The notes under the pieces were generated by a model. The model did not search any database and was not told where the DNA came from. It worked only from the letters and a program-made list of their open reading frames with translations. A DNA stretch of 64,000 bases from Callorhinchus milii. Its lineage: Eukaryota. Where the stretch lies: assembly GCF_018977255.1 (NCBI RefSeq), contig NW_024704742.1:71674001-71738000 (forward strand), read 5' to 3'. The translations under genes were made by a program, and so were the position numbers. Shown here piece after piece: positions 7,562 through 60,794 of the stretch (position 1 is its first letter; each line of letters starts with the position of its first letter).

Positions 7562-8160
7562 TAATCATTGGAACAACTGGGATTGTTAATAAAACAATTT
7601 AATGGTGGCTTGACAAAATACCTGGTGAACAAAATACCAACGTCCTGCAAAAAGCAGCTATATTAGGAATAATAATATATAATAATAATCCTTGCATTTG
7701 ATATAGCACCTTATCACGTGTTCGAGACGTCGCAAAGCACTTCACAGAATATACCATCAAGTGAACTGACTGTATATTTTATGGGTGAAACGCGGCAGCC
7801 AAATGCACACAGCAGTGTCCCACAAACAGTCGTGGATTGAGTGACCAAATTAATATTTTTTTTGTTTGAAGGGATTATTATGCCTACAAAAGTGATCAGC
7901 CAATCGACAAACAACTAGGTGCCTACTTACTGATGGGTAAACAGAGGCGTGTGGATTAAGGAAACTTGCTCAACGTTTCGCCCTGCCAGGAAATCAAACC
8001 CAGGTCCTCTCATTTGCGAGGCGAGTGCTCTAACCACTGAGCTACACGACGCTACATAATGAAATATAATCAAATATATTAAGAAAAGTAAGCTGCATTA
8101 ATATGTAACATGGCAGTGATATTGGTCTGGCTGCCCATCACTGAAAAACACTTAGAAACG
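7561..8160 (+). mobile_element. Dong/R4-clade non-LTR retrotransposon 3' fragment (RLE endonuclease C-terminus), split by a SINE
   Basis: 7561-7668 reads LIIGTTGIVNKTI*WWLDKIPGEQNTNVLQKAAILG. After the SINE, 8070 onward reads SNILRKV. This matches the IIG.G...IPG...LQK.A.LGT..ILRKV C-terminal pattern of R4/Dong elements; it abuts a long (AAT)n tract. Confidence 0.65.
7669..8055 (-). mobile_element. tRNA-derived SINE, full length, inserted into a Dong/R4-like fragment
   Basis: Same head, body and (TTA)n tail as the dominant family, reverse orientation. Confidence 0.85.
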
Positions 8161-15214: not shown

Positions 15215-15587
15215 ATAATAATAATAATAATCCTTGCATTTGATATAGCACTTTTCATGTCTTCTAGACGTCTCAAAGCGCTTCAAAGAATATACTTTAA
15301 AGTGAATTGACTGTATATTTGTGGGCGAAACGCAGCAGCCAATTGCGTGCAGCAGCGTCCCACAAACAGTCATGACTGAGTGACTAAATTCTTGTTTTTT
15401 TGAGGGATTATTTTTCCTGGAAAAGCGATCTGCCAATCGACTAACAACCGGGTTCCTACTTACTGCCAAGTAAACAGAGGTGTGTGGAGTAAGGAAACTT
15501 GCCCAACATTTCGGCCTGCCTGGGAATCGAACCCAGGTCTCTCGCTTGCGAGGCAAATGCTCGAACCACTGAGCTACAAGATTCCAC
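15215..15587 (-). mobile_element. tRNA-derived SINE, full length
   Basis: Head gtggaatcttgtagctcagtggttcgagcatttgcctCGCaagcgagagacctgggttcgattccc (tRNA-Ala-like anticodon loop), family body and (TTA)n tail. Similar minus copies at ~12215-12570, 19075-19635, 20131-20442, 42185-42515, 43410-43785, 59470-59780. Confidence 0.88.
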
Positions 15588-16650: not shown

Positions 16651-19600
16651 CAGAGTAGCTGCTTCAAATGCCACCAGCCACCATCTTCTGCCTCGAATTT
16701 CCTGCCCGTATCGGAGCAACCATTTTGCCCCTTGCTTCACAGGTCACAAGTTTCTGGCAAAAGCACTGTGAAAACGGGACACTTTTTTGCAATCTTGTGT
16801 GTGCGTGTGTGTGCGTGTGTGTGCGTGTGTGTGCGCGCGTGTGTGTGTGTGCGCTTGTGTGTGAGGGAGGAAGGAAGGGGGGTTAGTGGTGGTTGGGAGG
16901 TGGGGGAAGGTGTTTAAAAAGAGACTTTCTTTTCGCATTTCTTTGAAAAAAAACATGACTCCAAGCCAACACAAACTATGCAGGCAAATGGCTTCCATCT
17001 GTGGAGTCACTGGCGGCCGTTTGGCTTTGCGTTCCCTGTGTCGCTTTTCTCTCCTCCCCCATTCTCTCTCTCTCTCTCCTTCCACAATTCTCCCACCCTC
17101 CGCCTCCACCCCCCAGGAGCCAGAGAGACCCTGTGTGAACACCACCCCCCCCCACCTCCAACCTCCACCCCTGCCCCGCTCTAACTAGGCTGAAGCCTGA
17201 CTAGACCTGAGAGGTTGCGACCGGTCAAGCTCACGGTGAGAGTTCACAGTCTGCCTGCCCTGGCTGGCTTGTTTGGGTTGAATCGTAACGACTGTTGTCA
17301 TTCCAGAACTCTGTGATTATATCTCTGGCTGATCGAGCTATTGTTTTCTTTCTATTTTTCCTTAACAATAATAATGTGATTTGTGCATCGCAGTGCTCGC
17401 TACGCTTGACCTGGGCTCGATACGGTTCAGGAGCGAGCTGGCTGGAGGGTTTGTTATGTTCCTTTTCTGTACACACACCACACACACGCATGGACACGCA
17501 CGGACATGCACACATACACACAAAGACACACGTACAGACACACACTCACAAACGGGTTACATCACACAGACACAGACACAGACTCGCACATGGTTACATA
17601 CACGCACATTGGTACATACAGAGTCACATACACATGCGCAGATGCAAACTTACACAGACACACACACACAGATAAGCACACATGCAGATATACACATTCA
17701 CGCACACACATATATAAATGCACACACCCAAACACATCCACACATACATACGTAAATATACAGACCACATGCAAACACGTACATTCGCAAAAGTGTACCA
17801 AATACTTACACACATGCAAGCATTCACACACATAAACATACACAAATTCATATACACACAGACACACACATGAAAACATTTGTATCTAATAATTATCAAG
17901 GTGGATTACAGGGTGATTTACCAGCAATACAATCACCAGATCACACACTCTGCACCTTCACTGTGATGGACTGGCTCAGCCGCTCACATTCTCACCTCCA
18001 GATTGTAGGATCAAGCCCCACATTAGTCACTCTGAGCTCACAATCCAGGCTCACACCCTTTATTTTGATCAGCCGGGTTTCTGACACATGAAGAAACCCA
18101 CCACCATGCTTAAACCTCTCCTAACCAAACTGAGATTTCCATGTATCCCACCTACACATGGAAAGCCCAGAGGTAAATTGTTGGAATGGAATGTGCGCTC
18201 TCTCCCTGGAGGGACACATCCTGTTTACCTAATTCCGGAGAGTATTAGGTGCAGGTTGACAAGAGCCAAGGCTTGGGGACCCCAGAGTGTGCATTGGGGT
18301 AACTGCTGGAGTCTAACCAGCTGAAACCACATAGCTTAGTAATATAATAATCTTTACATTTGATTTAGCGCTTTTCACATCTTCTAGACATCTCAAAGCG
18401 CTTCACAAAATATGCTGTAAAGTGAATTAACCGTATATTTGTGGGCGAAACGCGGCAGCCAATTGCGCATAGCTTGTCATTGAGAGCACTGTCTGGCAAG
18501 CTTTCCTGCTGCTTATCCAACTAAGACCATGTTACCCCATTAGGGCTTTGGTTTGCAGGGTTAACAGGAGCTAAGTGGGAGGATTCCCTGCCCCCAGTGA
18601 CTGGTCTGCTCTTCCAAAGCCTGCCAGTGAGCCAGGATGGGCTGTGCTGTCATCAGCAGGCTGATACTCCAGTGCAACGTCAGAGAGATGCGATGTTAAA
18701 CCCCATCTGTGCCTGTTCAGGTGGATGTTAAAGATCCCATGGCGCTTTTGGAAAAGAGAAGGGAGTTTCTCTCTCTCGGTGTCCTGGCTGACAATACTCC
18801 AGATACAATCAGTCACTCACTTCTCAGCTGTCAGTGGCAAGTCACTGTGTGAAAATTGGGCTGCTGCATTCACCCCACAAATCACAGTCACAACAGTAAC
18901 AACAGCAACTTTCAAGTAAAAAATTGGTCACTCAAGGCACAATTGTTTGTGGGGCAAAACTGTGTGCAACTGGCTGTCACATTTTTCCTACAAAATACAC
19001 AGTCACGGCACTTTACAATATATATCCTGTGAAGCGTCTTATCAGATCTTCGATACATTTAAGCGCTTCACAAATTATAATAATAATAATAATCTTTGCA
19101 TTTGATATAGCATTTTTCACGTCTTCTAGACGTCTCAAAGCGCTTCACAGAATATACTATAAAGTGAATTGAGTGTATATTTGTGGGCGAAACGCGGCAG
19201 CCAATTGCGCACCTCAGTGTCCCACGAACAGTCATAGCAAAATTATTATTTTTTTCCTTGTGGGATTATTGTTAGGCATGTGGAGTAAGGGAACTTGCCC
19301 AAGGTTTCGCCTTGGGGGAACCAAACCCAGGTCTCTCGCTTGTGAGGCGAATGCTCCAACCACAAAGTGAATTGACTGTATATTTCGTGGACGAAACTCA
19401 ACAGCCAATTCCGCGGTGTCCTCAAACAGTCGTGGATTGAGTGACCAAATTATTAGTTTTTTTGTGTGAGGGATTATTACCCCTGGAAAAACAATCCGAC
19501 AATCGGCTAGCAACCAGGTTCCTACTTACTGCTAGGTAGACAGAGGTGTGTGGAGTAAGGAAACTTGCCTAAGGTTTTGCCCTAACCAGGAATTAAAACC

Positions 19601-19936: not shown

Positions 19937-20760
19937 GTGTGATGGGCAGCCAATTTGGATACTGAAATGTCCCACAACAGCCATGAAGCAAATGACCAAT
20001 TTTATCTGGGGGGGTTGGTTGGCCAGGACACCCCAAAAAGAGAAACTCCCTTCTCTTTTCCAATAACAATGTGGGATCTTTAGCATTGACCTGAATAGGC
20101 ACATACAGGACATCGGTGTAACATCTAAGAAATAATAATAATCCTTGCATTTGATATAGCGTTTTTCACATCTTCGAGACGCCTTAAAGCGACTCACAGA
20201 ATATACTGTAAGTGAATTGACTGTATATTTGTGGGCGAAACGCGGCAGCCAATTGCACACTGCAATGTCCCACAAACAATCGTTGATTGAAGTGACCAAT
20301 TTATTATTCTTTCTTTTTCTTGAGGGATTATTATCAGGCGTGTGGAATAAGGAAACTTACCTAAGGTTTCACCCTGCTGGGAATCGAACCCAGGTCTCTC
20401 GCTTGCGAGGCGAATGCTCTAACCACTGAGCTACAGGACTCCATACATCTCATCCACTGTAAGTTGCCTCTGACAATGCAGTGCTCTCCCCAGCACTGCA
20501 GTGGAGCGTCAGCCTGGACTGTGAGCTCAGAGACTTAGACTTGGGGGCTTGAACCTACAACCTTCTGGCTCGCAGGCGAAAGTAAAGTTGAACTCATCCC
20601 TGAGAGCGTTTGCTGCCTGCTCTGGAGAAACATTCCCCATTTTCTCATTCTGGATTGGGTTGGCAATGGGAACTTCTCAGAGAATTAAACCCTGAACGTT
20701 GACCTGCGCCCCTTCCACTGACCAATGAGTCCAGCAGGTTGGCAACTTGTCATGGCTTTA

Positions 20761-20779: not shown

Positions 20780-23700
20780 AGCCGGGGGATCACATGCACA
20801 CAGGCTGCTAACTCAAGGCTGGTGGAGCTGGTTGGGAGGACAATTGCTGACCACCACTCTGGCTTCTCAGACAGAACAACTCTCCATGATTTTACTCATT
20901 TATCCACATGTCCGTTTATCCGCATCAACGATTAGTCACATGTCACTTTATTCTATGTGTCCCATTAGCCACATGTCCTGTTACCTGTTTGCAATACGAT
21001 GCAACTTTACATTTAAACGACACCTTTCACATCACAAGGATGACCCAAGACTCTTCACAATACTGGCTTGGCATCCGAGATGGGGGTGTGTAGTGTATCT
21101 GTGCTGGCACTTGTTTCCCCCACTGGAGCTCTCTACTCTAACCCATTCCCTGCTATCTCCCCATCGTGTCTGTGCTGGTGCTCGCTCCCCCATGATACAG
21201 TTTCTCTTTGACCGTGCCTTCAGCTCCCCTCTCGACTCTCTTCCCCCTCCTCGCTCCCTCCCTTCCCTCCCCTCACCCTGACCATTTCCCCCCTGCTCGG
21301 GTCCTGACCTAACTGTGCAGCGCCTTGGGATGTCCTCCTGACGTGAAAGGCGTTTTATAAATGGAATCTTGTTGTTGTTGTTGCTATCCTTAGTTTTAAG
21401 ATGGGTTAAGACTGGGGGGAATGTCAGGCCTTGGTACTTGATTGGCAGAATGCCACTGGTTCCGCCCTGTGCCCCGAGAGCAGGTGAGGGATGCAATGAT
21501 ACAACAAGGGCCTGGAGCTAATTGGAGGGAGATTGTTCAGATTGATAGCTGTCAGGTCCTTCCTGGTATATATCCCCTACAGCGCTCAGCGACTGCCACA
21601 TGCTTCACAGACATGTTCGTTCCTTCACGCTATCAGTTCGTGCCAACAAATCACTGGCTTAATTAATCACTCACCTTACCAGGGTGGGAAGGGATTGTGA
21701 GCGTTACATTGTCGGAGACACCTCGTTCTTACAAGAGATATTAAACCCAAGGCTGACTGACCTTAAACTCCCCCAATGGAATGGTAGAGGGAGAAGGGAA
21801 CAAAAACAGAAGTCGCTGGGAACACTCAGCAGGTCAGGCAGCATCTATGGATTCGTCAGAACTGGGGCATGTTGGGAAGGAGAGGCTTTTGAGGGTTAAC
21901 AGAGAGGGGAGAGGCAGTGGCAAGGAAGACAAGGGAGAAAATGGGGTAGAGGACAGGGGATGATGGGTTAAAGAGGTGTTAATGATGCAAAACAGAGTGG
22001 GGGTTGCAACAACAACAACAACAACAACAAGATTCCATTTATAGAGCGCCTTTCACGTCGGGAGGACAAAGCAGGGAAATAGAGGTGTTAATAATTCAAA
22101 ACAAATGGGGGGAAAAATTGCAACAAAATAGGCAGACCAGAGAGAGAAAAGGTATGTCTGGGACCCAGACGATGTGGTAATGGTCACAGAAGAGGGGGAA
22201 AGCTGTTATGGTCTGAAATTGTTGAAATCAATATTGAGGCCAGAGAGCTGTAAGGTCCCTAGCAGATAAATGAGGTGCTGTTCCTTGAGCTTGCTCGAGG
22301 GAAAAGGGAAGTTTAATTCCTGGCGGGGAGAAATGTTAGGCAAGTTTTTTTTACTTCACATTCCTGTTTACTGAGCAGTAAGTAGGAACCTGGTTGTTAG
22401 TTGATTGGTGGATCGCTTTCCGGGGGTAAAAATCCCTAAAACAAATTAATAATTTGGTCACTGAATCCATGACTGTTTATGGGACACTGCCGTGTGTATT
22501 TGGCTGCCATGTTTCGCCCACACAATACAGTCAATCCACTTTACAGTATATTCTGTGAAATGCTTTGAGACAATTCACTGACATGATAAGATGATATATC
22601 AAATGCAAGGGTTATTATTATTATAGATTGGAAGCGAGGGAGGTTCATGAGGAATATAAACATCGGCACGGGCTTGTTGGGCCAAATGGCCTACTTTTGT
22701 ACTATCTGCAAAATATATCTCCCAGTGTCCTGGCTGACATCCCCACAAACAACAACATACAGTTATACAGCACCTTTCACACAGGATATTGTCTCAAAAC
22801 GTTGAAATCAGTCACTATTTGCAGGATGTTGCTGTGCGCAAAATCAACTGCCGCTTTTTGTCCACAAAACACACAAGATGTGGTCCCAACATAAAGAACA
22901 GTGGGTAATAATCCCTTCCAAAAATATACAGTATATTTTACAGCACACAAAATAAAAAGTCACTCCACTTTACAGTTTATCCTGTGAAGCCCTTTGAGAT
23001 GTCTCAACGATGTGAGAAGGCATTATATCAAATGCAAGGATTATTATTATTATTATTTAGGAACCTGTTTAGGATGTAAGGATTATTATAAGTATCTGAG
23101 CAGTAAAGATATTCAGCAAAGTGAGGGAAGAAGAGAGGTAGGAGGGAGGGAGAGGTGGGGAGTGGGATGAATCAAAACAATGAGTCAGACAAACAGGGAA
23201 GAGGCACGAGGCAGGAATGACCTCGGGTGATTTGCTTCATTCCAGGAACGGTCGTGTCTTTCGTTCCAATTATCATCTCCACCCACATGCTCTGTCTGGA
23301 AACCACAGAATTTCAACTATTTTCAGCCTCATACACCAACCTGCATGCACTGCACCTGACTTGGGAGTGAGGTCGGACAGTGCAGAAGAGCTTTACTCTT
23401 TGTTTAACCCGTACTGTTGCCGATGTGGGAGTGCGTTTGGTGCACCGTTGATAGTGTGGAGAACATCTTAGAGTTGGTGTTAGAGTGTGGTGACTGTGGT
23501 TCTTCCCCATCCTCTCCACTCCCCTGCCCCCCACCCCCTTGTGGCCCCAGGACAGGTGTACGAAAAAGAGGAGGCGAAGGGGTTAAGCAATCAGTGAAGT
23601 TGTGTAAACATTTGGTGAATGATGACAGCAGAGCGTGAAATAGCTGTGATTTCCCTGGGGGAGTGAGGACACACCCACAGTGCAGCACAAGTTCATCGGA

Positions 23701-25909
23701 AGCTCGTGGTCTGGCCACTCGAGCCAAGAGACAGACTCAAACATTCTCAGTGAAACACCCCAACCCTAACACCCCACCCCATCACTCACCTGACTCAGCA
23801 GGTCATACAATACTGCACACGTATAATAATAATTCTTGCATTTGATATGGCGCTTTTTATGTATTCGAGTCTCAAAGTGCTTCACGGAATATACTATAAA
23901 GTGAATTGACTGTCTATTTTGTGGGCGAAATGCAGCAGCCAATTGCACACAGCAGTGTCCCACAAACAGTTGTGGAATGAAGTTACCAATTGTATTATTG
24001 GGGGGTTTTTCTTGAAGGCGTGTGGAGTAAGGAAATTTGCCCAAGCTTTCACCCTGCCGGGAATCAAACCCAGGTCTCTCTCTTGCAAGGCGACTGCTCT
24101 AGCCACTGAGCTACAGGACGTATACGTCTTTTCGCCTAGTCATGGTGGTTTTTCTGCACATGAACAGCTCAGTCTAACCCCACTCTCTGCTCGCTCCTCC
24201 ACACATTCACACAGTCAGACAGACACACGCACACACGAGCACGACCGCACACACAAACACACTCCCCTTTCCGCCTCTGTCCCATTCTCCTTTTATACAA
24301 AACCAACGGACTTGGCCTCTGCTCTGGTTTGTGACAGAGAATCCCATGTGCACCCACCACGCCCCCCTCCCCTCGCCACCCCCGCCCGTGGACACACAGT
24401 GGTTTCTAACCTCTCCTTTAAGCCCCTTTGCATCTGACACTGCACCTTATCCCACCATCAAAACACCTCATAGTATTGACTGTAAAGTGCAGTGACTGTG
24501 TGTTTTGTGGATGAACGAACCAGTCAATTTTGCACACAGCAACGTACCGCAAACCATGAAGTGAGTGACTGATTTTATCTGGGGGATTGTTGGCCAGGAA
24601 ACCAGGACAGAGAAACTCCCTTCTCGATTCCAACAGCACCCGAGCTAGGGTTGGAAGCGAGGTGAGCAAGATGTGGTTGGGCAAAGATGACAGTGATGCG
24701 GTCAAAGAGGAATGTCTTGATGAGACGGACCTTGAAGGAGGCGAGGGAAGGGGTGAGCCTTAGGGGCTCCGGGATGGAGGCAGTGAGTGGGGGCAGATAG
24801 GCTGTAACCAGACGTGACCCTCGAGTCAGGAGGTTCAAGACCCATGTCGGGACTTTGAGCTCCCAAACCTCCGCGTAGCTAACTCAGGCATGCAGCGTGT
24901 CCCACCTTCTCCGTGCCACTATGGTTGCCCGAACCTTCAGTTCCTGTGTACTAACCTCCATCTCATCCCCTCCTGTTTTGTCCTTAAGTCCAAATAAAAT
25001 CCTGTCTCTTCAACTGTGCTTATTGTCACCTTCCTTGCTTTGCGTCTGACCCCATCCCATGCGCAGCTCTCAGAGATGTTACCCCATGTGATGGGCAGTG
25101 CATAAATGCACGTTGTTGTTGGTGGTGATTGGTTTGGGATACTCATAAGCATGATGATGTGTCAGATAACCAGCTGACCAAAAAAAAGCCTCAGTATTGA
25201 AAGCTGCTGCTGAGCTTGGTGGAGGAGAGATCTTACAGCATTAGGACCCAGAAGAAATTCTCAAATCTTATTCTTGCCCGAGGTGAAGAATGATTATCTA
25301 ACTCCATTCAGAATCCCACGCACACACGCATGTTGCCAGCAAAGCACAAGCTTATAGACGAAGGAATAGATCTGAGTGAAGAGCAGTGTTAACTCTTTGA
25401 GTCCCGAGTTTGGAAGAAAGAACTTTTGCTTCACGGCAGTCTGACTCAGTCGCTCAAACTCAAGTCTGTCTGGTACTGTTTGTCTTTACCGACGTGATAG
25501 CTGCTACTGTATATTAATGCAATTTGTTGTTGTTGTTGATGATGCTCCAGTGCAGTGCTGGGGGAGCATTGCTTTGTCGGAGGTGCTGTCCTTCGGATGA
25601 AACTCCCCGGTGTCCTTCGGATGAAACTTTAGAAATCCCGTGTTACTGTTGGAAAACAAGAACAACAACATTCAGAATTTGTTGTTGGCCGACAATCCCC
25701 AGTTACATCACTCATTCACTTAATGGCTGTTTGTGGGACATTGCTCTGTGAAAAATTGACTGCCACGTTCTCCTTACACATTTCACTCAAAGGACGGTAT
25801 CACCAAAAGTGCAGTGATCCTCCATCACTGTACTGGAGCGTCAACAACAACAAATCATCAACAACAACAAAATTACATTCACGTCGGGAGGACGTCCCAA
25901 GGCACTGGA

Positions 25910-38200: not shown

Positions 38201-39384
38201 AACCCCCCGCTCCCCCACTTCTCTTTTCAAATAACACCGTGGGATCTTTAACATCCACCTGAACAGGCACAGATGGGAGCTTAACAGCATCTCCAACAGT
38301 GCAGCGCTCTCTCCAGCACTGCACTGGAGCGTCAGCCAAACCTGTATGCTTCAAGTCCTGACGTGGGACAACACAGTGTGGTTTGACGCTGAGCTGGGAA
38401 GTGAGGGGAGGTGACTGAAAGCACATTCAATGAGTTAAGTCTTCAGGTGTTATTTGAAGATGGGAAAAGAGGGGACAAGACAGGGGCAAAGAGTTTCAGA
38501 GTGAAGTGGCTGAGAGCACGGCCGCTAATGGTGGAGCAGAGGGAACGAGGGATGTGCAGGAGGCCGGAGCCAGCCGAGCGGAGGCTGCTCAAATCACCTG
38601 CTTATTCCGCATGCCACCACCCACCACCTCCACTCGACTGGCTCCAGCCTCCTACCTGCCCTCATCCCCTCCATTCCACCATCGGTGGCCGTGCTTTCAG
38701 CTACTACACCCTGAAACTCCGGAACTTTCTCCCTCAATCCCTCTGCCTTGTCCTCTCCTTCCCCATTTTCAGATCGTGCCTGAAGACTTTCCTCTTCGAT
38801 CCTGCCGATGGTCCCCTCCTCCCTCCCATCCATCTCGGTGTCAGACTCCGCCTCTGTTAAGCGCTACCTTGCATGAAGGGCACCCTATAAATGCAAGTTG
38901 TTGTTATTGTGGAGTCCCCTAGCTCAGTGGTTAGCCCATTCACTTCGCAAGTGAGAGGACCTGGGTTCAATTCCTGGGGAGGACAAAACCTTAGGCAAGT
39001 TTCCTTACTCCACACACCTCTGTTTACCTTGCTGTAGTAGATTGACGGATGACTTTCTGGGGGTAATAATCCCTCAAGAAACAATTGATCACTCACTTCA
39101 TGGCTGTTTGTGGGACACTGTGCACAATTGGCTGTCGCATTTCTCCCACAAATTACACAGTCAATTAATTCACTTTACAATATATTCTTTGAAGTGCTTT
39201 GAGGCATCTCAGCGATGTGATAAGGCACTATTACAATTGCAAGGAGTATTATTGTTATTATTATCACGCCTTAAGATGTTCCTCTTTGACCGTGCTTCCA
39301 GTCACCTCCACCCCGGCACAGTGTCAGGCTCTGTCACTGTTAAGTGCTCAAAGACACTACCCTGTGTGAAGGGCGCTGTGTAAA

Positions 39385-40071
39385 CAACAACAACAACAAC
39401 AACAAGATTCCATTTATAAAGCACCTTTCACGTCAGGAGGACGTCCCAAGGCGCTGCACAGTTGGGTCAGGACCCGAGCAGGGGAAATGGTCAGGGTGAG
39501 GGGAGGGAAGGGAGGGAGCGAGGAGGGGGAAGAGAGTCGAGAGGGGAGCTGAAGGCTCGGTCAAAGAGAAAGGTTTTGAGACCGGCCTTGCAGGAGGAGA
39601 GGGAGGAAGCGGCGAAGGCACTGGGGGATGGAGTTCCAGAGCCTCGGGGCTGAGAGACTGAAGGCCCGGCCACCTTGATTAGGGCGGGGGACGTGGAGCA
39701 GACCGGAGCCGGAGGAACGGAGGGTATGGGCAGGTAGGTAGGGGGATAGTAGGTCAGAGAGGTAGGAGGGAGCAAGGCCGTGGATGGCCTTATAGGTGAG
39801 GATGAGGATCTTGAAATCAATCCTCTGGGGGATGGGGAGCCAGTGGAGGCGAGCGAGGGTGGGAGTGATGTGGTCGCGAAGCCTGGTGCGGGACAGTACA
39901 CGAGCTGCAGAGTTCTGAATGACCTGCAGTGTGGAGGGAGGGGCCGGGATGGCCGGCGAGGAGAGAGTTCCCATAGTCCAGCCTTGAGGTGACGAAGGCG
40001 TGGACCAGGGTTTCAGCAGCGTGAGGGGTGAGGTAGTGGACCAGGGTTTCAGCAGCGTGAGGGGTGAGGTA
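39385..40071 (-). mobile_element. Young 5'-truncated L2 insertion with 36-bp duplication at the 5' junction
   Basis: HYLTPHAAETLV repeated twice (40000-40071); VIQNSAARVL..LHWLPIPQRIDFKIL; (TTG)n tail; GTAAA at both flanks (39380-39384, 40072-40076). Confidence 0.88.
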
Positions 40072-42798: not shown

Positions 42799-44476
42799 CG
42801 TGATAGGCACTATACAAATGTAATTTTGTTGTTGTTGTATGATTGATATAAATGTAATTTTGTTGTTGTTGTTGTTGATAGACTTATGCGAGTTTCATTG
42901 TGTATCCAGAACCTGCCCAGTGGAGGGGACGGACAGGTTAGTAAAGATTTAATAGGTCGCAGAGCAAGACCGTGGAGCGCTTTAAAGGTGAGGATGAGAA
43001 TCTTGAACTCTATCCTCTGGGGGATGGGGAGCCAGTGGAGCCGGGCGAGGGTGGGGGTGATTTGATCACAAAGCTGAGTGCGGGAGAAGACATGAGAGAA
43101 GACAAAACCTATCCTTGCTGAACCTGTGTTGGTTGTCAAGTATTAGATGATTTTTATATTGGTAATCTCCCATTTCCTTCCTGATGGATTTCCTATTGTT
43201 TTCGAGATGTCCTCGGAGACTGGTTGGGTGCAGGAGGATTGGAGGGTGGCTTAAGAAGGGGTGAAGAATAAAACAAGGAACTCCAGGCCGGTAACTACTC
43301 TGACATCAGTTGTGGGTAAATGCTTGGAGGCAATAATAAGGGACCAAGTTAGTAATGACTGAGATAGTCATGAGTTAAGCAGGGTTTGTGAAGGGCAGAT
43401 CGTGTTTGATAATAATTTAATAATAATAATCCTTGCATTTGATATAATAATAATCCTTCCATTTGATATGGCACCTTATCACGTCTTTGAAACATCTGAA
43501 TTGACTGTATATTTTTGTGGGCGAAAGGTGGCAACGAATTGCGCACAGCAGTGCCCCACAAACAGTTGTGGATTGAGTCACCAAATTTTTTTTTATTTTT
43601 GAAGGGATTTTTACCCCGGAAAAGCAATCCGCCAGTCAATTAACTACCAGGTTCCTACTTACAGTTAGGTAAACAGAGGCGGGTGGAGTAAGGAAACATG
43701 CCCAGCATTTCGCCCTGCGGGAATAGAACCCAGGTCCTCTCGCTTGCAAGATGAGCACACTAATCACTATGCTACAGGAATCCAAATTCAAGTTGTTGTT
43801 TCCTGAATATCCTCTTACTGAAAGAATTTGGGGGTTACGTTTTTGCTGCTAGGTAGCACATGCCTTGCATTTGCTAAGATCTCCTGTTCTGGTTCTTGCT
43901 TATCTACCCTAATCTCTTTCTAAACTCTTTCTGTACTGTACAGTCTTGTATTCAGCCCACTGGTCGCCCTCTCATTTCTCCCTACACGCTTTGAAACCTT
44001 CTTTTTCTTTCTCTCCCCTTTTATTTCCTATTGATCCATTTCGGTGTGTTATGGGTTATTTTGCCACGGGCCATCTGCCATCAGTACATCAGTACATTGC
44101 CTCAGTACATCTGAGTACGTACTTAATCCAGGACTGTTTGTGATTTGCGCAATTGGCTGGCGCGTTTTTTCCACAAAATATACAGTATATTCTGTGAAGC
44201 GCTTTGAAACGTCTTGAAGACGTGATAAGGCGCTATATCTGTAGATCAGTGGTTAGAGCTCTCACCTCGCGAGTGAGAGACTTGGGTTCTATTCCCGGCA
44301 GGTCAAAATGTTGGGCGTATTTCCTTGCTCCACACGCCTCTGTTTACCTACAGTAAGTAGGAACCTGGCTATTAGTGGATTGGCGGATCGCTTTTCCGAG
44401 GATAATTATCCCTCAAGAAAAAAAACAATAATAATTTGATCACTTCAATCCACGACTGTTTGTGGGACACTGCTAC

Positions 44477-45417: not shown

Positions 45418-45880
45418 TTTTTTGATCAGCTGGGTGTACATCATACGGAAACCCATCACCATGCTTAAGAGTCTCCAAACCAAGCTGAGATTTCCATGTA
45501 TCCCACCTACACATGGAAATCCCAGAGACAGGTTGTTGGAATGGAATGTGCCTCTCTCCCTGGAGGAACATACCCTGTTTACCTAATTCCAGAGAGTATT
45601 AGGCTCAGGTTGGCAAGAGCCGAGGCTTGGGGACCCCAGAGTGTCCATTGGAGTAAATGCTGGAGTCTAACCAGTTAAAACCCCAAAGCTTGCCATTGAG
45701 AGCACTGAGCACTGGCAAGCTTTCCCGCTGTTTATCCAGCTGGGACCACCCTACCTGTTAGGGCTTTGGTTTGCAGGGTTAACAGGAGCTGAGTGGGAGG
45801 ATTCCCTGCCCCCAGTGACTGGTCTGTCCTTCCAAGTCCTGGTGATGAGCCAGGCTGGGCTGTGCTGTCATCAGCAGTGC
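45418..45880 (-). repeat. Unclassified ~460-bp dispersed repeat, most complete copy
   Basis: Homologous copies at ~18062-18660, 52942-53189, 55510-55775, 55970-56112, 59000-59255. Ends on the minus strand in cacccagctgatc followed by an A-run; internal hairpin tttccatgt...acatggaaa. Confidence 0.8.
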
Positions 45881-47675: not shown

Positions 47676-48071
47676 TCACACGGTGGAGCCCAGCAGAGGA
47701 TCAGAACCAGAGGGCCGGATCTGGTTGTGGTTTGAGTCCAGGCCACAGAAGCGGACCCTGAGTCCATCCACGGGATGGACGACGGGGACGGTCTGCATGC
47801 GTGGGGGGGAGCGTGTGGCTAGCTGGAAGCGGCTGGAGATAGCCAACTCCACCCCCAGGACCTTCAGCACCAGCTTGGCCAGCTCCTTGCCCAGGCAGCC
47901 ACGCACCCCACCCCCGAACGGGATGTAATTGAAACGTCCGCCCTTGTTCTCGTCCCTCTCCTCGCCGAAACGATCAGGATCGAAGGCGGCCACGTTCTGG
48001 AACACCTGCGCCGTGTCGTGGGTGTCTCGGATACTGTACAATACGCTCCATCCCTTGGGAATCTGGCAGCC
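47676..48071 (-). CDS. cyp26b1: CYP26B-type cytochrome P450 (retinoic acid hydroxylase), terminal coding exon 6
   Basis: Translates [20 protein letters not shown]...FDPDRF...[18 protein letters not shown]...[22 protein letters not shown]. Contains the heme motif FxxGxRxCxG and the PDRF motif. Acceptor AG at 48072-48073 with pyrimidine tract and CTAAT branch-like site; TGA at 47676-47678; 396 bp. The C-terminus is B1-like, but exact orthology is unproven. Confidence 0.93.
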
Positions 48072-49587: not shown

Positions 49588-49869
49588 ATCGAGTTCGAAG
49601 GTCTGCAGTGCTGACCTATAACCCCCGGACACAGGGGGCAGCAGGCGAAGCACCTCTTTAATGACACAGTCCAGGTACTTGAGGCGGGCAATGGTGTCCA
49701 TGCGGAGGGTCTCCTGGCAGCGACAGCCCTCCTGAACCAGCCCCTGATGGCCCAGCTCCTCACGCAGCTTCTCTAACACCCCAGGGTGCTGTAACAGCTG
49801 TAACACCAGAGAGGTACACGCACTGGACGTGGTGGCGAAGGCAGCGAAAATCAGCTCCACTGTCGACTC
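49588..49869 (-). CDS. cyp26b1: CYP26B-type cytochrome P450, exon 5
   Basis: 282 bp, phase 0: [29 protein letters not shown]...[30 protein letters not shown] (I-helix and ExxR motif). Acceptor AG at 49870-49871; donor GTGAGT begins at 49587. Confidence 0.93.
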
Positions 49870-51855: not shown

Positions 51856-52180
51856 TAATTGAATATAACAGCCAGGGGCCTGAGGGCTCACGCTAATAAT
51901 AATAATAATCCTTGCATTTGATATAGCGCCTTACCACATCGTTGAGAGGTCTCAAATCGCTTCACAGAATATACTGTAAAGTGAATTAACTGCATATTAT
52001 GCAGGCGAAACACGGCAGCCAATTGTGCATAGCTGGGTCCCACAAACAGTCATGGACTGAATGACAAAATAATTTTTTTTTGAAAGAATTATTACTTGCC
52101 TAAGGTTTTTATTCTGCCCGGGGAATCGAACCCAGGTCCTCTGGCTTACGAGGTGAGCGTTGTAACTACTATGCACTCAC

Positions 52181-52336
52181 CTTGAGTTCCTGCATGCTGA
52201 GCTCCTTGCCATGCTCGCGGGCGCTCTCGATCAGGATGTCCAGGGCGTCTGAATACTCCTTGTCCTGCCCGCCCTGCAGCTTCTCGCTGATGGCTTTCTG
52301 CAGGTATGTGTACAGGTTGTCTCTTGCTCGCATTCC
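52181..52336 (-). CDS. cyp26b1: CYP26B-type cytochrome P450, exon 4
   Basis: Hand translation (not in ORF track frame): [52 protein letters not shown]. 156 bp, phase 0, ccag acceptor and GTGAGT donor; matches the vertebrate CYP26B1/C1 exon 4 size and MQELK end. Confidence 0.92.
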
Positions 52337-54112
52337 CTGGGGGTGAGAACCGGCAACAGCGATTAGCAGCCGCGCATTTCATGCTTCAATACTGCAACTT
52401 TGCAATATTACAACATCGTAATACTGCAACATTACAGTGGCAACACCTCAATGCCACCAACGCAATGCCTGAATAGCCATCACAATAGCAACATCGCAGC
52501 TACAGAGTCACAGTCACTACCGCAACACTGCAATCGCAATGTCCTCCGATCTGACCCAGTAGCTTTCTCACTGAGAGTCTGCCACTGGTGTCTAACCTCC
52601 CCTTTAAATCACTTTGCTTCTGATATTGCGCCTCATCACATGGTCAAAGCGCTTCACGGGATTCACTGTAAAGTGTAGTGATCGTGCATTCGTAGGCGAA
52701 CATGGCAGTCGATCTGCTCATCCTATCAAGTTGTTGTCAAACAGCCACGAGGTAAGCGAGTGAGTTGATTTGGCAGATTGTCGGCCAGAACATCGGAACT
52801 CTCTTTTCTTTCCCAACAGCGTCGATGGATCCTTAGCATTCATCTGAACAGGCACAGAAGGGAGCCCGGTTTAACACCTCATCCAGAGTGTAGTGAGTGA
52901 GTGTAGCGACTGTGGCTGAGACATCCAGATTTTTGGGAGGAATCAGCCGGGTGTCTCAAACATACGAAACCCATCACCATGTTTGAGTCTCCAAACCAAG
53001 CTGAGAATTCCATGCATCCCAGCTACACATGGAAATCCCAGAGAGAGATTGTTGGAATGAAATGTGCACTCTATTCTTGGAGGGACACATCCTGTTTACC
53101 TAATTCCGGAGAGTATTAGGCACAGGTTGGCAAGAGCCAAGGCTTGGGGACCCCAGAGTGTGTGTTGGGGTAACTGCTGGAATCTAACCGGCTCAGGCTC
53201 TCGCATTCTCAATCAGAGGGTCGTGGGTTCAAGCCGAAGTCGGGGACTCTGAGCTCACAGTCCAGGCTGACGCTCTAGTGCCGTGATGGGGGTAGAGAGA
53301 GCGCCTCAATGTCAGAGGTGCCGTCTTTCGAATGAGACATTAAACCTCACTCCCTGTTCGTGCAGCAGGCGGTAAAGACCCCGCGGAGCTGTTGGAAAAG
53401 AGAAGGGAGTTTCTCTCTCCTGGTGTCCCGGCCAATAATAAAATTAGTCATTCACTTCACTGCTGCAACAGCGGGATGTTGCTGTGCGCAAGTTGGCTTC
53501 TGCATTCATCCACAAAACAGTCACTACCCTTTACAGCAAATCCTGTGAAGCGCTTTGAGCAGTCTCTATGTTCTAGGTGATTAATCAATCGCAGAACTAT
53601 ACAATAATTAACATGACATTTCCAAACTCCCCCGCTGCTTGACTATTTATCCTATTTATCCCAGAATTCCAGATGAGACGTTAAGCCAAGGTCCCATCCG
53701 ACTGCTCAGGTGGATGTTAACGATCCCGTGGTGCTATTGGAAAAGAGAACAGAGTCTCTCTCTCCCGGTGTTCTGGCCGACAATTCCCCAGATAAAATTG
53801 GTCCCTCATTTCACGACTGTGGCACACTGCTGTGTGCAAACTGGCTGCTGTGTTTCACCCACAAAATACACAGTCACTACAGTTTACAATATATTCTGTG
53901 AAGCGCTTTGACAACTCTCAACAATCATAAATGCAAGGATTATTATTATTATTAGATTATATATTATTTTCCTAATCTATAATAAGACAAATGTAATATC
54001 GTCCACAAAATATACAGTCAATTCACTTTACAGTGTATTCAGTGAAGTGCTTTGCGATGTCTCGAAGATGTGATAATAATATTAATAATCCTTCCATTTC
54101 CTCTCTCCCCAG

Positions 54113-54388
54113 GTCTTTGCTAAACTGTTCAGTCACGACGCATTGCAGAGTTACCTTCCGAAGATCCAGCAGGTAATCCGGGATGGAATCCGAGATTGGA
54201 GCAGCAGTGAGGAGCCCATCGTGGTTTATCAGGAAGCTAAGAAGCTGACGTTCCGGATTGCCGTGCGTGTGCTCCTAGGTTTCCAGGTCTCTGAGGAGGA
54301 CCTCAGCCTCCTCTCCAGCAACTTCGAGCAACTCGTTGCTAATCTCTTCTCCTTACCCCTCAACCTTCCCTTCAGTGGGTACAGGAAG
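54113..54388 (+). CDS. cyp26b1: CYP26B-type cytochrome P450, exon 3, inverted relative to exons 4-6
   Basis: 276 bp open frame [25 protein letters not shown]...[13 protein letters not shown]...[16 protein letters not shown]. Acceptor ctctctccccAG ends at 54112, donor GTACGC starts at 54389, phase 0; same length as vertebrate CYP26B1 exon 3. Confidence 0.9.
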
Positions 54389-54404
54389 GTACGCCGTAAT
54401 CACG

Positions 54405-54810
54405 ATAATAATAATAATAATTACAATAATAAAAGCAGTAAAATTGATAATAATAATAATAAAAGTAATAGTAATAACAATAAGACTTATAATAATAAAA
54501 AATTATAATTGTTATAATTATTAACGGTGATAATGATTAATATAAAATAATTAATAACCCATAATAATGATAATAATTATTATATTCTGTGAAGCGCTTT
54601 GAGACTCTTCGAAGACAGGATAAGGTGCTATATCAAATGTAAGGATTATTATTAAACATTATTATATATTCAATAACATGGGTTATTAAATATTATTATT
54701 ACCATATTATTTATGATTGTAATATTTATAGTGATTTTAATAATATTTATTTTAATCATGATTAATAATTCTAATAGTGATTATAATATAATAATTAATA
54801 ATAATCCTTG
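54405..54810 (+). repeat. AT-rich (AAT/ATT) low-complexity tract directly after exon 3
   Basis: Degenerate AAT repeats interleaved with SINE tails. Confidence 0.85.
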
Positions 54811-55734
54811 TATTTGATATAGTGCATTATCATGTCATTGAGACTTTTCAAAGCGATTCACAGGATATATTGTAAACTGAAGTAACCGTATTTTATGGGA
54901 AAAACATGGCAGCCAATTCTGCACAGCAAACAGTCGTGAATTGAGTGACCGAATATATAAAACATTTTTGGAGGTATTATTACCCCCGGAAAGCGATCCA
55001 CCAATTGGTTAACAACTGGGTTCCTACTTACTGCTGGGTAAACAGAGGCCTGTGGAGTAAGGAAAGTTTAGGGTTTGGTTTGAATGGTTAATATTCACTT
55101 CCCGACTGTTTGCGGGATATTGCTGTGTGTAAATTACATCTGTATGTAGATTTCCTCGGTTTCCTCAGCATTTTCAGAATGTCCAGAGTTTATAACATAA
55201 TAATAATCGTTCCATTGACATAGCGACTTATCATGTCAAAGCGCTTCACAGAATATACTGTATAGTGACTGTGTATTTTGTGGGTGAAACAGGGCAGGCA
55301 ATTGCACACAGCAGTGTCCCACAAACAGTCATGGATTGAGTGACCAAATTATTAATATTATTTTTTTGTTTATTTGGGAAATTCTTGAACATGACCTGAA
55401 TTTTGAAGCATTCCTTTTTAAGAAACGACAGGAAACTGGCCTCAGAGTTAAGAATGAATTCTGTTCGTTTGGCACAAACACTGCGGAGTGCTGAGAGAAT
55501 AAGAGTGAATCTGACTCATATCGGCAGGACTTGGAAGGGCAGATCAGTCACTGGGGGCAGGGAAACCTCCTACTCAGCTCCTGTTAACCCTACAAACGAA
55601 AGCTTGAACGGGCTGCGAGCTGGACAAGCAGCGGGAAAGCTTGCCAGACAGTGGTCTCAATGGCAAGTTACTTGGTTTTAGTTCCATGTGTAAGCGACAA
55701 ACACAGATGAAACTCTGGTTTGGACAATCTTAAG

Positions 55735-55920
55735 CACAGTGATGGGTTTCCGCATGTGTTCGACACCCGGCTGATCACAGTGATGGGTTTCTGTGTATAT
55801 CAGACACCCGGCTGATCACGGTGACAGATTCTGTGTGTGTCAGACACCCGACTGATCTCAATGACAGGTTTCTGTGTGTGTCAGACACCCGGCTGATCAT
55901 AGTGATGAGTTTCTGTGCTG
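55735..55920 (+). repeat. ~41-bp tandem repeat (about 4.5 units) derived from the end of the unclassified repeat
   Basis: Unit cacagtgatgggtttc..gtgt.cagacacccggctgat starting at 55735, 55776, 55817, ~55857, ~55898. Confidence 0.9.
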
Positions 55921-58900
55921 ACCTGATGGATGTCCTCTCGGACGTCAGTCTCAGCTCTGGGCACAACAGAATGAACTTTCACGTCAGGATGTGTTTCAAA
56001 ATACTAATTCTCAGCTGTAGGTGACATACGTTCAACTCTTTGTCTTGTTTGGAGACTCTTAAACAAAGTGATGGATTTCTACTTGTGTCAGACATCCAGC
56101 TGATCCAAAAAATTATTCAGTGTATAAACCCCATTAACTCCAAGGTTAGATTGCAGCTGGTAACTCACTTCCTGGATTCAAAATAATAATAATTTTACAT
56201 TTAATACAGTGCCTTTCACATCGAGAGGATGTCTCAAAGCGCTTCACAGGACTTCATTGTAAAGTGTGTGTTTGTGGGTGAACGCAGCAACTAATTTGTA
56301 CACAGCAACGTCCCACAAACAGCCATGAAGTGACCAATTTTTGGGGGGGATTGTTGGCCTCGACACCAGACAGAGAGAAACTCCCTTCTCTTTTTCCAAT
56401 AGTGCCATGGGATCTTTAACATCCACCTGAACAGGCAGACGGGACCTTGGTTTAACATCTCAGGACATTAGTGTGTGAGAAACATTGCGTCTCTGTGTTC
56501 AAGATGTCTCTGCGTGCGGACCACCCTCTGTGTTGGCGTCCGTGACAACATTCCTCCCATCGCCCACCCCCCCCCACACACACACACATATACACACCAA
56601 CTCATGCACTTCCACGTTCCCGCTACTTATTTTACGCATAAGAAACAGAGACATTTTGTGAATTGATCGTGGGCGGGGGAGTGGGGGGGAAACGGTTATA
56701 AACCAGAACGGGAGACTCGAGAGGTCACTCACAGCGACAAGCCCACACTGCGCAGCGCGGTGGGATGGGGATGGGTGCGGGCGGGCGCGTGGAGTGGGGG
56801 GGGGTGGATTGAAAATCTGACTGCGAACCACATGAAAGGGGAGCGACCAGCTGTAACTTGTTTTTTTTTATCATATTGTGTCGGTAAAAGGAGCAGGCTG
56901 TTCCCCTGTCGAGCGTCAGATAAAAAGGGCGAGAGTGGGAAGCCCATGGGAATACATCTTGGTGGCGACTGTTACAGTTCTTGGCTGTCAGGGCCGGGAA
57001 TTAATGGGGGTTTGATGACAGGATTTTTGACAGCCACACAAAAGAGGTGTCAGCGAGGACGACACAAGACATTAGAAGAATGATTCTCCTCTCCCTTGGT
57101 TTCAGTGTCTGCGCTGTCATCCGTCTGCCAATCTCCCAGTCGCTGCTTATCTAAAGAGCCATTTATCCTCCTCTTTCCCACAGGCTTTGCCAGATCGGGA
57201 CCTGTGCCTGGATTTCGTGACGATACCCTGCAACTGGCCTTCATTAACTTGAGACAAGTATGACTTTGTGGGTTTTTTTTTTTGTCGCTCGAACTGACAT
57301 TCGGACACCGAATGTCCGAATGGTCGGGAGAGGGAGGTGTGTGAGAGTGTGTGAGTGAGTGTGCACGAGTGTGTGTGTGTGTGTATAAGCGTGTGTTCAA
57401 TTGACACTTTTAGGTTTGGTAAGAGGTGTTATTCGGATGAAACGTTAAACCAAGCTCCCATCTGTGCCTGTTGCCCAGGGCTGTTTGCTGTGCTCAAATT
57501 GGCTGCCGTGTTCTCCTACAAAGCACACAGTCACTGCACTTTACAGTACATCCTGTGAAGCGCTTTGGGACATCTTCCCAATGTGAAAGACATAATATCA
57601 AATGCAAGGATTATTTTTATTGTTGTTATGTATCACGATTCACTTTGGCACAGCAAAGTCCCACAACAGCCATGAAGTGAGTGACCAATTTTTTCTGGGG
57701 ATTGTTGGTCAGTCCACAGGGAGAGAGAAACTCCATTCTCTTTTCCAACAGCCCCGCGGGATCTTTAACATCCACCAGAACAGGCACGGACGGGATTTTG
57801 GTTTAACCTCTCATCCAAAGGATGTCTCCACTGACTGTGGTACTCCCCACAGCACTGCAATGGAACGTCAGCCTGGATCGTGAGCTCAGAGTCTCAAAAT
57901 GGGGCTTAAACCCACAGCCTTCTGGCTCAGAAACAAGAGCGCAAGAGACTGAGCCAGGCTGATATCAAAAACCTTAAAAGGGATATACGGAAAAAAACAG
58001 CTTTGAAATCAAGGCCATGTTGAAGAATTTATTAATTGTAAAATGCTGAGAAAATAGAGTAAATGTGGAGCCAGGAGGGGTTTGTGCCCAGGTCAAATTC
58101 TAGCCTGAAATTTAGGCTGGGAATTCAAGACAGCGTCTGCTCACCCTGTGCGAAGGCTTTAGGTTCAAAATAAGGCAGCATAGAATTATGGGATGTTTCT
58201 TAATTTTTAAACCTAGGACAACTTCAACTTGTATTTACACAGCAGCTTAATTCAGGACAGCGTCTCGGAGCATGGGGCAGGGCAGAGTTGGATGGGAAGG
58301 CGGGGGAAAGGGGGAGGTAACTATAGGCACCTGATGATGGAGTATTAACATTTCAAAAACTGGATTGAGGCTGAAGTCTAATAGTTTAAAATAATAATCT
58401 TATGTTTGAAATAACGCCTTTCATGTCTGGAGGACGTCTCAAAAGCGCTTGCTTCACAGGAAATACGGTAAAGTGTAGTGACTGAAGAGAGATTTTCTCC
58501 TGGTGTCCTGGCCGACAAAACCCCAGATAAAATTACCCGCTCACTTCACAACTGTTTGTGGGACACTGCTGTTCACAAATTGGCTGCCACATTCACCCAT
58601 AAAATACACAGTCACTGCACTTTACAGTAAACCGTGTGAAGCCTCCTCCTGACATGAAAGGCGCTGTAGGGAAGGATTATGATTATACTTGTGGAGTCCT
58701 GTAGTGTAGTGGTTAGAGCACTTGCCTCACAAGCAAGAGTAGGTTTGATTCCCAGCCAGGGTGAAATCTTAGATAAATTTCCTTACTTCACACGCTTCAG
58801 TTTATCTAGCAGTAAGTAGGTACCTGGTTAGTTGGTTCCTACAGTAGTGTGGCCCCCGGGGTGTGATTGGCGTATCGCTTTTCTGGGATAATAATCCCTT

Positions 58901-58974
58901 CCAAACAAAAGTTTAATCAATGATCACTCAATTCACGACTGTTTGTGGGACACTGCTGTGCGCAATTGCTGCCG

Positions 58975-58999
58975 NNNNNNNNNNNNNNNNNNNNNNNNN
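58975..58999. other. Assembly gap (25 N)
   Basis: Run of n characters. Confidence 1.
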
Positions 59000-59425
59000 G
59001 GTTAGATTCCAGCAGTTACCCCAACACACACTCTGGGGTCCCCAAGCCTTGGCTCTTGCCAACCTGTGCCTAATACTCTCCGGAATTAGGTAAACAGGAT
59101 GTCCCCTCCAGGGAGACCGCGAGAGAGAGCACAATCCATCCCAACAATCTTTCTCTGGGATTTCCATGTGTAAGCGACAAACACAGATGAAACTCTGGTT
59201 TGGACAATCTTAAGCACAGTGATGGGTTTCCGCATGTGTTAGACACCCGGCTGATTCCTCCCAAAAATCTGGATGTCTCAGCCACAGTCGCTACACTCAC
59301 TCACTACACTCTGGATGAGGTGTTAAACCGGGCTCCCTTCTGTGCCTGTTCAGATGAATGCTAAGGATCCATCGACGCTGTTGGGAAAGAAAAGAGAGTT
59401 CCGATGTTCTGGCCGACAATCTGCC
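59000..59425 (-). repeat. Inverted near-duplicate of 52772-53189 with a mosaic centre
   Basis: 59241-59425 is the exact reverse complement of 52772-52956. 59000-59102 is the exact reverse complement of 53087-53189. 59162-59255 is a direct copy of 55682-55775 with one mismatch. Confidence 0.95.
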
Positions 59426-60794
59426 GCGTTTTGCCCACAAAATACAGTCAGTTCACTTTACAGTATAAGAATAAGAATAATCCTTGCATTTGATATAGTG
59501 CTTTTCACGTTTTCTCGACATCTCAAAGTGCTTCACAGAATATACTGTAAAATGATTGACTGTATATTTGTGGGTGAAGCGTGGCAGCCAATTGCTCACA
59601 GCAGTGTCCCACAAACAGTCGTGGATTGAAGTGACCAATTCATTATTTCTTTTTCTTGAGTGACTATTATCAGGCATGAGGAGTAACGAAACTTGCCCAA
59701 GGTTTCGCCCTGCTGGGAATCGATCCCAGGTCTCTCGCCTGCGAGGCGGCTGCTCTGATCACTGAGCTACAGGACTCCTATGTTCTGTGAAATACTTTGA
59801 GACGATGTGATGAGGTGCTACATCAAATGCTAGGAAGGAAGAAAGAAAGAGCCATAAAATGATTGACCAAATTTCAGTCCCCAGAGGGGATGTCGGAGGT
59901 GGCGAGGGGGCGAGGGCGGCTGGGTGGGGGATAAAGTGCTGATCCCCAGCGTGTTGTAGCCATGTGGCTAGTGTGGCCCCTGGGGTGTGACAGGGAGCAG
60001 GTGTTTCCCGGGCAGGTCAGAGCCCGCCTGCCAGGAGCACCTTTGTTCATGTGGGATAAAGCCCCACAGGGAGCGAGGCAGGGAGGGAGGGTAAAGGAAA
60101 AGAATTCCTGCACATCCCTCCCCCCCCCCCCCCCCCCGTGGGCCAACACTCGCTGTCAAAGACTGAGCTCTGTTGACTGACCTGCTCACACCCCCCCACC
60201 CCCCCACCCCAGGAGGTGCCTATTGTGGCACACTCACAGTCACTCAGACAGGTACTCCACAAGACCTCTCTCTTTCTTTCTCGCTCTCTTCCCCCCCGCT
60301 TGCCAGTGGGGGCGGGGGTGAGTGAATGAGACGGCGTTTCAGGGCAGCTATGTATTGGGGGGGGGGGTTAGCTCTCTCTGGGGGAGGGGCGCGTCCAGGA
60401 CAAAAAGCACCCGCTCAGCGCCTGTCATCTTTTCAGGATGAAGATGGATGGGGCTGGTTCACAGCGCTGAATGGGGCTCGGGCTCACTGACTGCTGATCT
60501 GAGCTCGACACCACACGTGTGTGTGTGTGTGTGTGAGAGAGAGAGTGTATGAGATAATGTGTGTGAGAGAGTGTGACTGTGTGTGCGTTTGAGAGAAAAA
60601 GAGAGAGACAGTGCGTGTGGAGAGAGTGTGTGTGTGAGAGAGACTGTGTGTGTGTGACAGTGTGTGAGAGTGTGTGTGTGACAGAGAGAGTGCATGTGAA
60701 AGAGTATGTGTGTCGGAGTGTGTGAGTGAGACAGTGTGTGTTTGTGTGTGAGAGAGTGTGTGTACGTGTGTGAGAGAGTGTGTGTGTGTGTTTG

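Follow-up and report, generated by a model that had tools for sequence, protein, structure and literature searches.

An exon of CYP26B1 on the wrong strand in the Callorhinchus milii genome sequence, probably through an error at two inverted repeat arms

Results

CYP26B1 and its exon 3

The stretch of DNA analysed here, called the window, comprises 64,000 nucleotides of the Callorhinchus milii genome (GCF_018977255.1, NW_024704742.1:71,674,001-71,738,000, forward strand). It holds four exons of CYP26B1, which encodes a retinoic-acid-degrading P450; their places in the protein are given for P0042, a Callorhinchus milii protein of 512 residues whose CYP26B1 name is the one given by its sources.

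47676..48071, minus strand: exon 6, coding part; P0042 residues 382-512; Pfam p450
49588..49869, minus strand: exon 5; P0042 residues 288-381; Pfam p450
52181..52336, minus strand: exon 4; P0042 residues 236-287; joined to exon 3 in record 25 of run X5
54113..54388, plus strand (the wrong strand): exon 3, 276 bases, 92 codons, with intact AG/GT; 100% identical to P0042 residues 144-235

The translation of exons 3-6 agrees with residues 144-512 of P0042 at every letter; in this the locus is like vertebrate CYP26B1, unlike which it carries exon 3 on the opposite strand. Judged by sequence, the gene is CYP26B1, given the 100% match to P0003 and P0042 and the exons that tile the protein with phase-0 AG/GT borders; most of the 39 protein matches are named 26B1, and none 26A1 or 26C1. 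Exon 3 occurs once in the window, inside which exons 1 and 2 gave no match. Taken alone, exon 3 gave no Pfam match, and against the PDB it matched CYP120.

The public gene models that form the protein cluster have exon 3 in line in five of five members; some of these models may have been patched from transcripts. In P0003 the reading continues past exon 3 to intron position 54461 before it enters exon 4, a path that would require a genomic template with exons 3 and 4 on one strand. P0003, P0043, P0044 and P0045 are faulty annotations: in all four, intron- or SINE-like sequence replaces exon 1, and in P0003 part of exon 4 is replaced by the intron read-through.

A repeat family with two outside copies

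Both ends of the region around exon 3 carry copies of an unclassified repeat with a unit of about 450 bases, two further copies of which lie elsewhere in the window.

18062..18660, plus strand: second outside copy, broken by a SINE fragment at about 18338-18469 (self-comparison)
45418..45880, plus strand: outside copy, intact, used as the reference (window self-comparison)

Independent copies are 91-94% alike across the core of the repeat, and the longest identical run between them measures 20-43 bases (six pairs). The head exists in two distinct forms, Y in the left arm and X in the right arm described below, which are 82% alike. A solo LTR was considered and rejected for this repeat; both full copies can be read as TG...CA, but neither has a matching flank of 4-6 bases. 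Four of five copies, including both full ones, have a T-rich end. When the flanks were checked for a target duplication, those of the 18062 copy gave an 11-base match with 2 differences and those of the 45418 copy nothing clear. The repeat is perhaps a tailed retroposon. No Rfam family came near the threshold; two weak matches far below it were taken as chance.

The SINE tail fragment that interrupts the 18062 copy spans 18330-18477, with an 8-base duplication on either side, and sits some 15-20 positions from the point at which the left arm is cut; insertions or breaks may favour the middle of the repeat. Elsewhere in the window, 21201-21383 and 39391-39571 lie in opposite orientation at a distance of 18 kb; the pair, of 183 bases, is 96% alike, has an exact run of 76 bases and looks like LINE fragments.

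The cut copy and the flip of 53190-55683

The features on either side of exon 3 are the following.

52942..53189, plus strand: left arm, the first ~250 bases of the ~450-base repeat, made of Y head 52942-53086 and core 53087-53189; 87% to both outside copies
53087..53189, plus strand: core of 103 bases, repeated letter for letter, reversed, at 59000-59102 (exact match)
53190..55683, no strand assigned: segment of 2,494 bases inverted relative to the working gene, from the gap-free joint after a flip, the exon strand and the spliced contig
53190..53570, plus strand: SINE, its head directly adjoining the left arm (matches to other SINEs of the window)
55525..55683, minus strand: repeat positions 256-424, continuing the left arm in exact register; 84-85% to the outside copies
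55682..55775, minus strand: right arm as assembled, X head, positions 6-101 followed by a jump of ~155 positions; 93 of 94 letters identical to 59162-59255
55735..55917, minus strand: four tandem units of 40-41 bases of the repeat head and part of a fifth (self-alignment)

A preliminary description of this DNA held that the plus-strand repeat stops abruptly at 53189 and that its continuation is read from 55683 downward on the reverse complement, and both statements stand. The left arm corresponds to positions 8-255 of the 45418-45880 copy and ends at 255, whereas the minus-strand piece below 55683 supplies positions 256-424. Within the window, 53189|53190 is spanned by none of 10 non-self matches and 55683|55684 by none of six. 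The segment was flipped in silico and the junction aligned to the outside copies, as the same description had proposed; among five right ends tried (55681-55685), 55683 was the best and the only one to give a gap-free joint against both copies, with alignment scores of 496 and 494, compared with 328 and 343 as assembled. By arithmetic that leaves the exon out of the count, two independent breaks would meet at most 2 bases apart in a 450-base element about once in 100 cases, and the agreement of the two break positions is not chance. The same flip puts exon 3 (54113-54388) on the strand of exons 4-6, again as described. For the assignment of the 256-424 part to arm X or arm Y, the 84-85% against a baseline of 87% is a difference within noise.

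The further claim that the flip rebuilds one full repeat held for the left joint, which closes without a gap, and not for the right copy, which stays a stub of about 100 bases with a score of 70; because some 160 bases are missing there, the flip rebuilds only one of the two junctions. Likewise, the segment does lie between opposite copies of one family, at 52942-53189 (plus) and 55525-55775 (minus), with inner edges fixed by the cut repeat; the right copy, however, is more than the 55684-55775 first assigned to it. Letters 55682-55683 could belong to either side of the right junction and thus form a 2-base microhomology. The X head appears to be native at the right arm, since the adjoining tandem units of 40-41 bases carry the X variant. 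In a check for swapped target sites, a 6-base match paired the left flank with the end at 55516; a match of that length or more also turns up in 11% of random pairs and, when different copies are paired in the 16 other ways, in 3 of these. A further diverged fragment of the repeat head lies on the minus strand near the right arm, at 56016-56111.

A gap and a mosaic piece

The preliminary description had overlooked a third, mosaic copy of the repeat and the gap that it adjoins.

52772..52956, plus strand: left flank, copied exactly at 59241-59425 (185 of 185 identical)
58915..59470, plus strand: a single SINE, interrupted by the gap and the mosaic piece and in register from 58974 on to 59427
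58975..58999, no strand: gap of 25 N, the sole one in the window (letter count)
59000..59425, minus strand: mosaic piece of 426 bases beside the gap (exact-word tiling and pairwise alignments)

Runs of 25 N are a placeholder of gap-filling software. The gap lies 3.3 kb from the right junction, and the piece next to it begins exactly at the break that the preliminary description had named: its first 103 bases (59000-59102) are the exact reverse of 53087-53189. They are followed by 59 bases of copy X found only here (59103-59161), by 79 bases equal to 55682-55760 (59162-59240) and by 185 bases that are the exact reverse of 52772-52956 (59241-59425), so that three nearby stretches account, letter for letter, for 367 of the 426 bases. 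For independent copies of this family, an identity of 103/103 would have a chance of 5e-5 to 1.5e-3.

The bases missing from the right arm are those of 59000-59161, and with them X becomes an arm of about 255 bases; restoring 59000-59255 gives one near-full minus-strand element with a score of 430. As 53087-53189 equals 59000-59102 reversed, the left-side strand change can be placed anywhere in the 103-base core; 53189, where it had been placed earlier, is the inner edge of the arm and need not be the point of exchange.

The two flanks of the gap are a single continuous SINE. With the insert omitted, the joint 58974|59427 is spanned by 40 of 51 SINE matches, whereas 59425|59426 as assembled is spanned by none of 80 non-self matches. 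The label SINE is used here from the tRNA-like head and the copy number alone. Nine tRNA-like calls in the window, eight Ala(cgc) and one Cys (7978-8051, 12503-12575, 13243-13314, 15512-15582, 20369-20440, 24049-24120, 38914-38985, 44234-44307 and 59705-59776), are probably heads of a second SINE family and not tRNA genes.

Set against the native order that we infer, the assembled order has four strand-change joints within 6.7 kb. The first lies inside the 103-base core; the second is the 2-base overlap at 55682-55683, where about 160 bases are lost; the third falls in 14 bases common to both heads, and the fourth in 5-6 bases common to two SINEs (52772 and 59421-59426).

Contigs from independent runs

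Four of 24 listed runs were compared, namely X1-X3, which are three samples of one study, and X5 from a second study; that is, three of the four with the best coverage and one second-study run. Rare variants drop out of such contigs, and the assembled animal may not be among those sequenced in the runs. Record 25 of X5 has 1,575 bases, about the length of the whole coding sequence, and a depth of 635; the six listed X5 intron contigs have depths of 4-6, and contig depth was not read as copy number. Its letters 666-821 equal 52180-52335 and its letters 822-1100 equal 54111-54389 on the opposite strand of the window, with no differences, so that exon 3 is spliced directly to exon 4. Because of this spliced contig we take X5 to be RNA, although no listed run is recorded as such. 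The spliced contig and the five gene models together indicate that the normal exon order is the working state.

The left flank was covered as well. One unbroken contig bridges 52771|52772 in all four runs, a joint that is also spanned by 4 of 13 SINE matches, and 52956 is bridged in three of the four, with continuation into the Y head; the X2 contig ends 28 letters beyond. Contigs of X1, X3 and X5 link the left arm to the left flank as far as 53014. Since unbroken contigs bridge both points, the main path in the four runs does not lead through the mosaic joints. On the right, contigs of X1, X2 and X3 cover 55871-55877 through 56237, and the inverted segment itself is accurate, with 0-1 differences in the listed contigs. 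Among the matches listed, no contig crosses 53189|53190, 55683|55684, 55775, the gap or the rebuilt joints, in either order. These matches comprise 32 pieces, 15 joints and 24 loose ends, with a further 268,110, 5,981 and 10,187 unlisted; with high-copy repeats dominating, the absence of junction-crossing contigs among those listed is no evidence either way.

Single-letter differences in the compared runs occur at 52250, 52259, 52367, 52852 and 52964, two of them within exon 4 in X2 at low depth. The repeat-poor stretch 56600-57460, in intron 2 of CYP26B1, has low-depth contigs in all four runs and is a candidate conserved non-coding element.

Discussion

A probable error at two inverted repeat arms

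The backwards exon 3 is probably a local misassembly or a library chimera at two inverted repeat arms. The preliminary description had left it at two repeat copies that either mediated an inversion or confused the assembler, and of these the evidence rather favours a confused assembler. In the animal, exon 3 would lie on the gene strand between inverted arms about 2.5 kb apart, of which the left would be a near-full copy and the right a half copy of about 255 bases. The simplest native order would then read left flank, Y head, core, 53190-55683 reversed, core, X head and right flank, with 58974 joined to 59427, and the assembled junctions would be absent from the animal. The error may go back to the preparation of the library, to assembly or to the closing of gaps. 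Two inverted arms, each about 250 bases long, that have an inner stretch in common would create a fork at position 255, where one path leads to the rest of the repeat and the other to the SINE; a build that switched arms inside the 103-base stretch and took the wrong exit would write the intervening segment reversed. The reversed segment would rejoin the right flank through the 2-base overlap, with the loss of about 160 bases, and those bases, now attached to a duplicate of the left flank, would remain beside the 25-N gap within the continuous SINE. Leftover arm sequence would be expected to end at the same fork, as the mosaic piece does.

A software fault and chimeric molecules would give the same picture. 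Amplification chimeras leave the same signature as replication template switching in vivo. The base-precise junctions, with microhomologies of 2, 5-6 and 14 bases, count against an error, as they are also what such template switching leaves. According to the part of the literature drawn on here, inversions with a deletion make up more than 85% of amplification chimeras, most being primed at 2-21 complementary bases (PMC1855051), and gaps with redundant, overrunning flanks, a gap being defined as 25 or more N, are suspected marks of inversions and assembly mistakes (PMC3504050).

Alternative explanations

An animal that carried the inverted exon would be one in which a replication template switch between the inverted arms and nearby SINEs had inverted exon 3 on one chromosome, deleted about 160 bases and inserted, at a distance of 3.3 kb, a templated copy of the arm together with the left flank; its second chromosome would be normal, and the gap would mark the place where two haplotypes could not merge. 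The four strand-change joints within 6.7 kb, with homologies of 2, 5-6, 14 and up to 103 bases, would fit such a one-off allele, and the exact duplicates would suit a very recent event. With its 276 bases, exon 3 can be skipped in frame at the cost of 92 residues, which would make the allele a recessive null. Loss of Cyp26b1 kills mice just after birth and gives zebrafish mutants severe skeletal defects, as far as the cited text goes (PMC7151129); a homozygous carrier is unlikely because of the death of the null mice, a heterozygous one is possible, and the observed transcript would fit a null allele in the heterozygous state. We nevertheless consider a real allele of this kind rather unlikely. 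The event ends at an assembly gap, the mosaic joints are absent from the contigs that bridge 52772 (four of four runs) and 52956 (three of four), a private multi-step null in an essential gene would rarely be sampled, and amplification chimeras leave the same signature in the text consulted (PMC1855051).

Through a homogenised core of 103 bases the arms might also recombine repeatedly and keep a simple inversion segregating in the species; the assembly would then have picked up the inverted allele, with the deletion and the stray piece added by error. What speaks for it is that the flip point falls in a duplicated stretch free of differences, while the rest of the arms is only 82% alike, but only the suspect piece next to the gap shows the core a second time, and the two may therefore be one sequence written twice. 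For homologous recombination, 103 bases are short. Moreover, the inverted joint was found in no run among the matches listed, and selection would act against a null allele. Repeat-mediated reversals of exons are nonetheless known in humans, with DOCK3 and USP40 as cases in the portion of the study used here (PMC2603318). On balance a recurrent inversion seems improbable, and it is equally doubtful that exon 3 is a naturally flippable cassette whose inner 103 bases are kept identical by repeated exchange and whose in-frame null recurs or segregates in wild chimaeras.

Two readings that move or remove the breakpoints fare worse. We think it very unlikely that the true breakpoints are the wider 52772 and 58974/59427, with a whole block of 6.2 kb reversed, or that the gap hides a second, correctly oriented exon 3 segment. 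The mosaic piece does join 59426 to 52772 on the opposite strand, and its start coincides with that of the inverted segment; against this, 52771|52772 is bridged in four of four runs and by 4 of 13 SINE matches, 58974|59427 is in SINE register, and the gap-free rejoining at 55683 would be a matter of chance. For the four compared runs, the bridging contigs and the SINE register largely refute a flip of 52772-58974. Next to no credence is due to the case that the preliminary description had named as its own refutation, in which there is no inversion and the minus-strand copy at 55525-55775 came from a separate insertion and has simply lost an internal part. Putting 59000-59255 back does yield a near-full minus-strand element scoring 430, but exon 3, which is single in the window, 100% identical to the protein and intact at its splice sites, would stay on the wrong strand, contrary to the spliced contig and the five gene models; this case fails, as exon 3 has to be turned to give the spliced transcript of X5.

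Comparison with known inversions and artefacts

Inversions mediated by retrotransposon recombination in primates include the exon-reversing cases DOCK3 and USP40; for DOCK3 the authors could not exclude an assembly error, and one locus was dropped as such an error (PMC2603318, excerpt). The present locus is like them in having opposite copies of one family at both ends of a few-kb segment with a reversed exon, and like some of them in a deletion at a breakpoint (same excerpt). It is unlike them in that rebuilding in place succeeds for only one arm, the part that is missing is found next to a gap, and there are two extra strand-change joints; the chimaera repeat, moreover, is unclassified, neither Alu nor L1. 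When the arms were checked as breakpoint chimeras, the left arm may switch from Y to X within the core, and the right arm is whole only with the mosaic piece.

False inversions that stem from assembly errors are a catalogued class (InvFEST; PMC3965118, in part). With these and with overfilled gaps, so far as the excerpts describe them (PMC3965118, PMC3504050), our locus shares an inversion seen only in a reference, redundant sequence by a minimal gap, and another order obtained independently. Unlike those cases, which were settled by experiment or reads, the order here is settled for the transcript and the left flank only. The likeness to amplification chimeras lies in strand changes a few kb apart at 2, 5-6 and 14 common bases, with a deletion at one of them (PMC1855051, excerpt), and the difference in one switch that falls within a 103-base match. 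Among ten papers found on CYP26B1 in the elephant shark, no title or abstract opening mentions an inversion.

Meaning for CYP26B1 and the Callorhinchus milii genome

If the inversion were real, it would be a natural null of a key enzyme of skeletal and limb patterning in a slowly evolving cartilaginous fish, and a small case of repeat-driven exon inversion outside primates. If, as we think probable, it is an error, an essential gene that is in truth intact and expressed appears broken in this sequence, and calls of gene loss, exon inversion or structural variants made from the sequence would mislead. The cut repeat and the leftover piece would in that event give a base-level repair, and the pattern of a flip beside a short gap may recur in the Callorhinchus milii genome.
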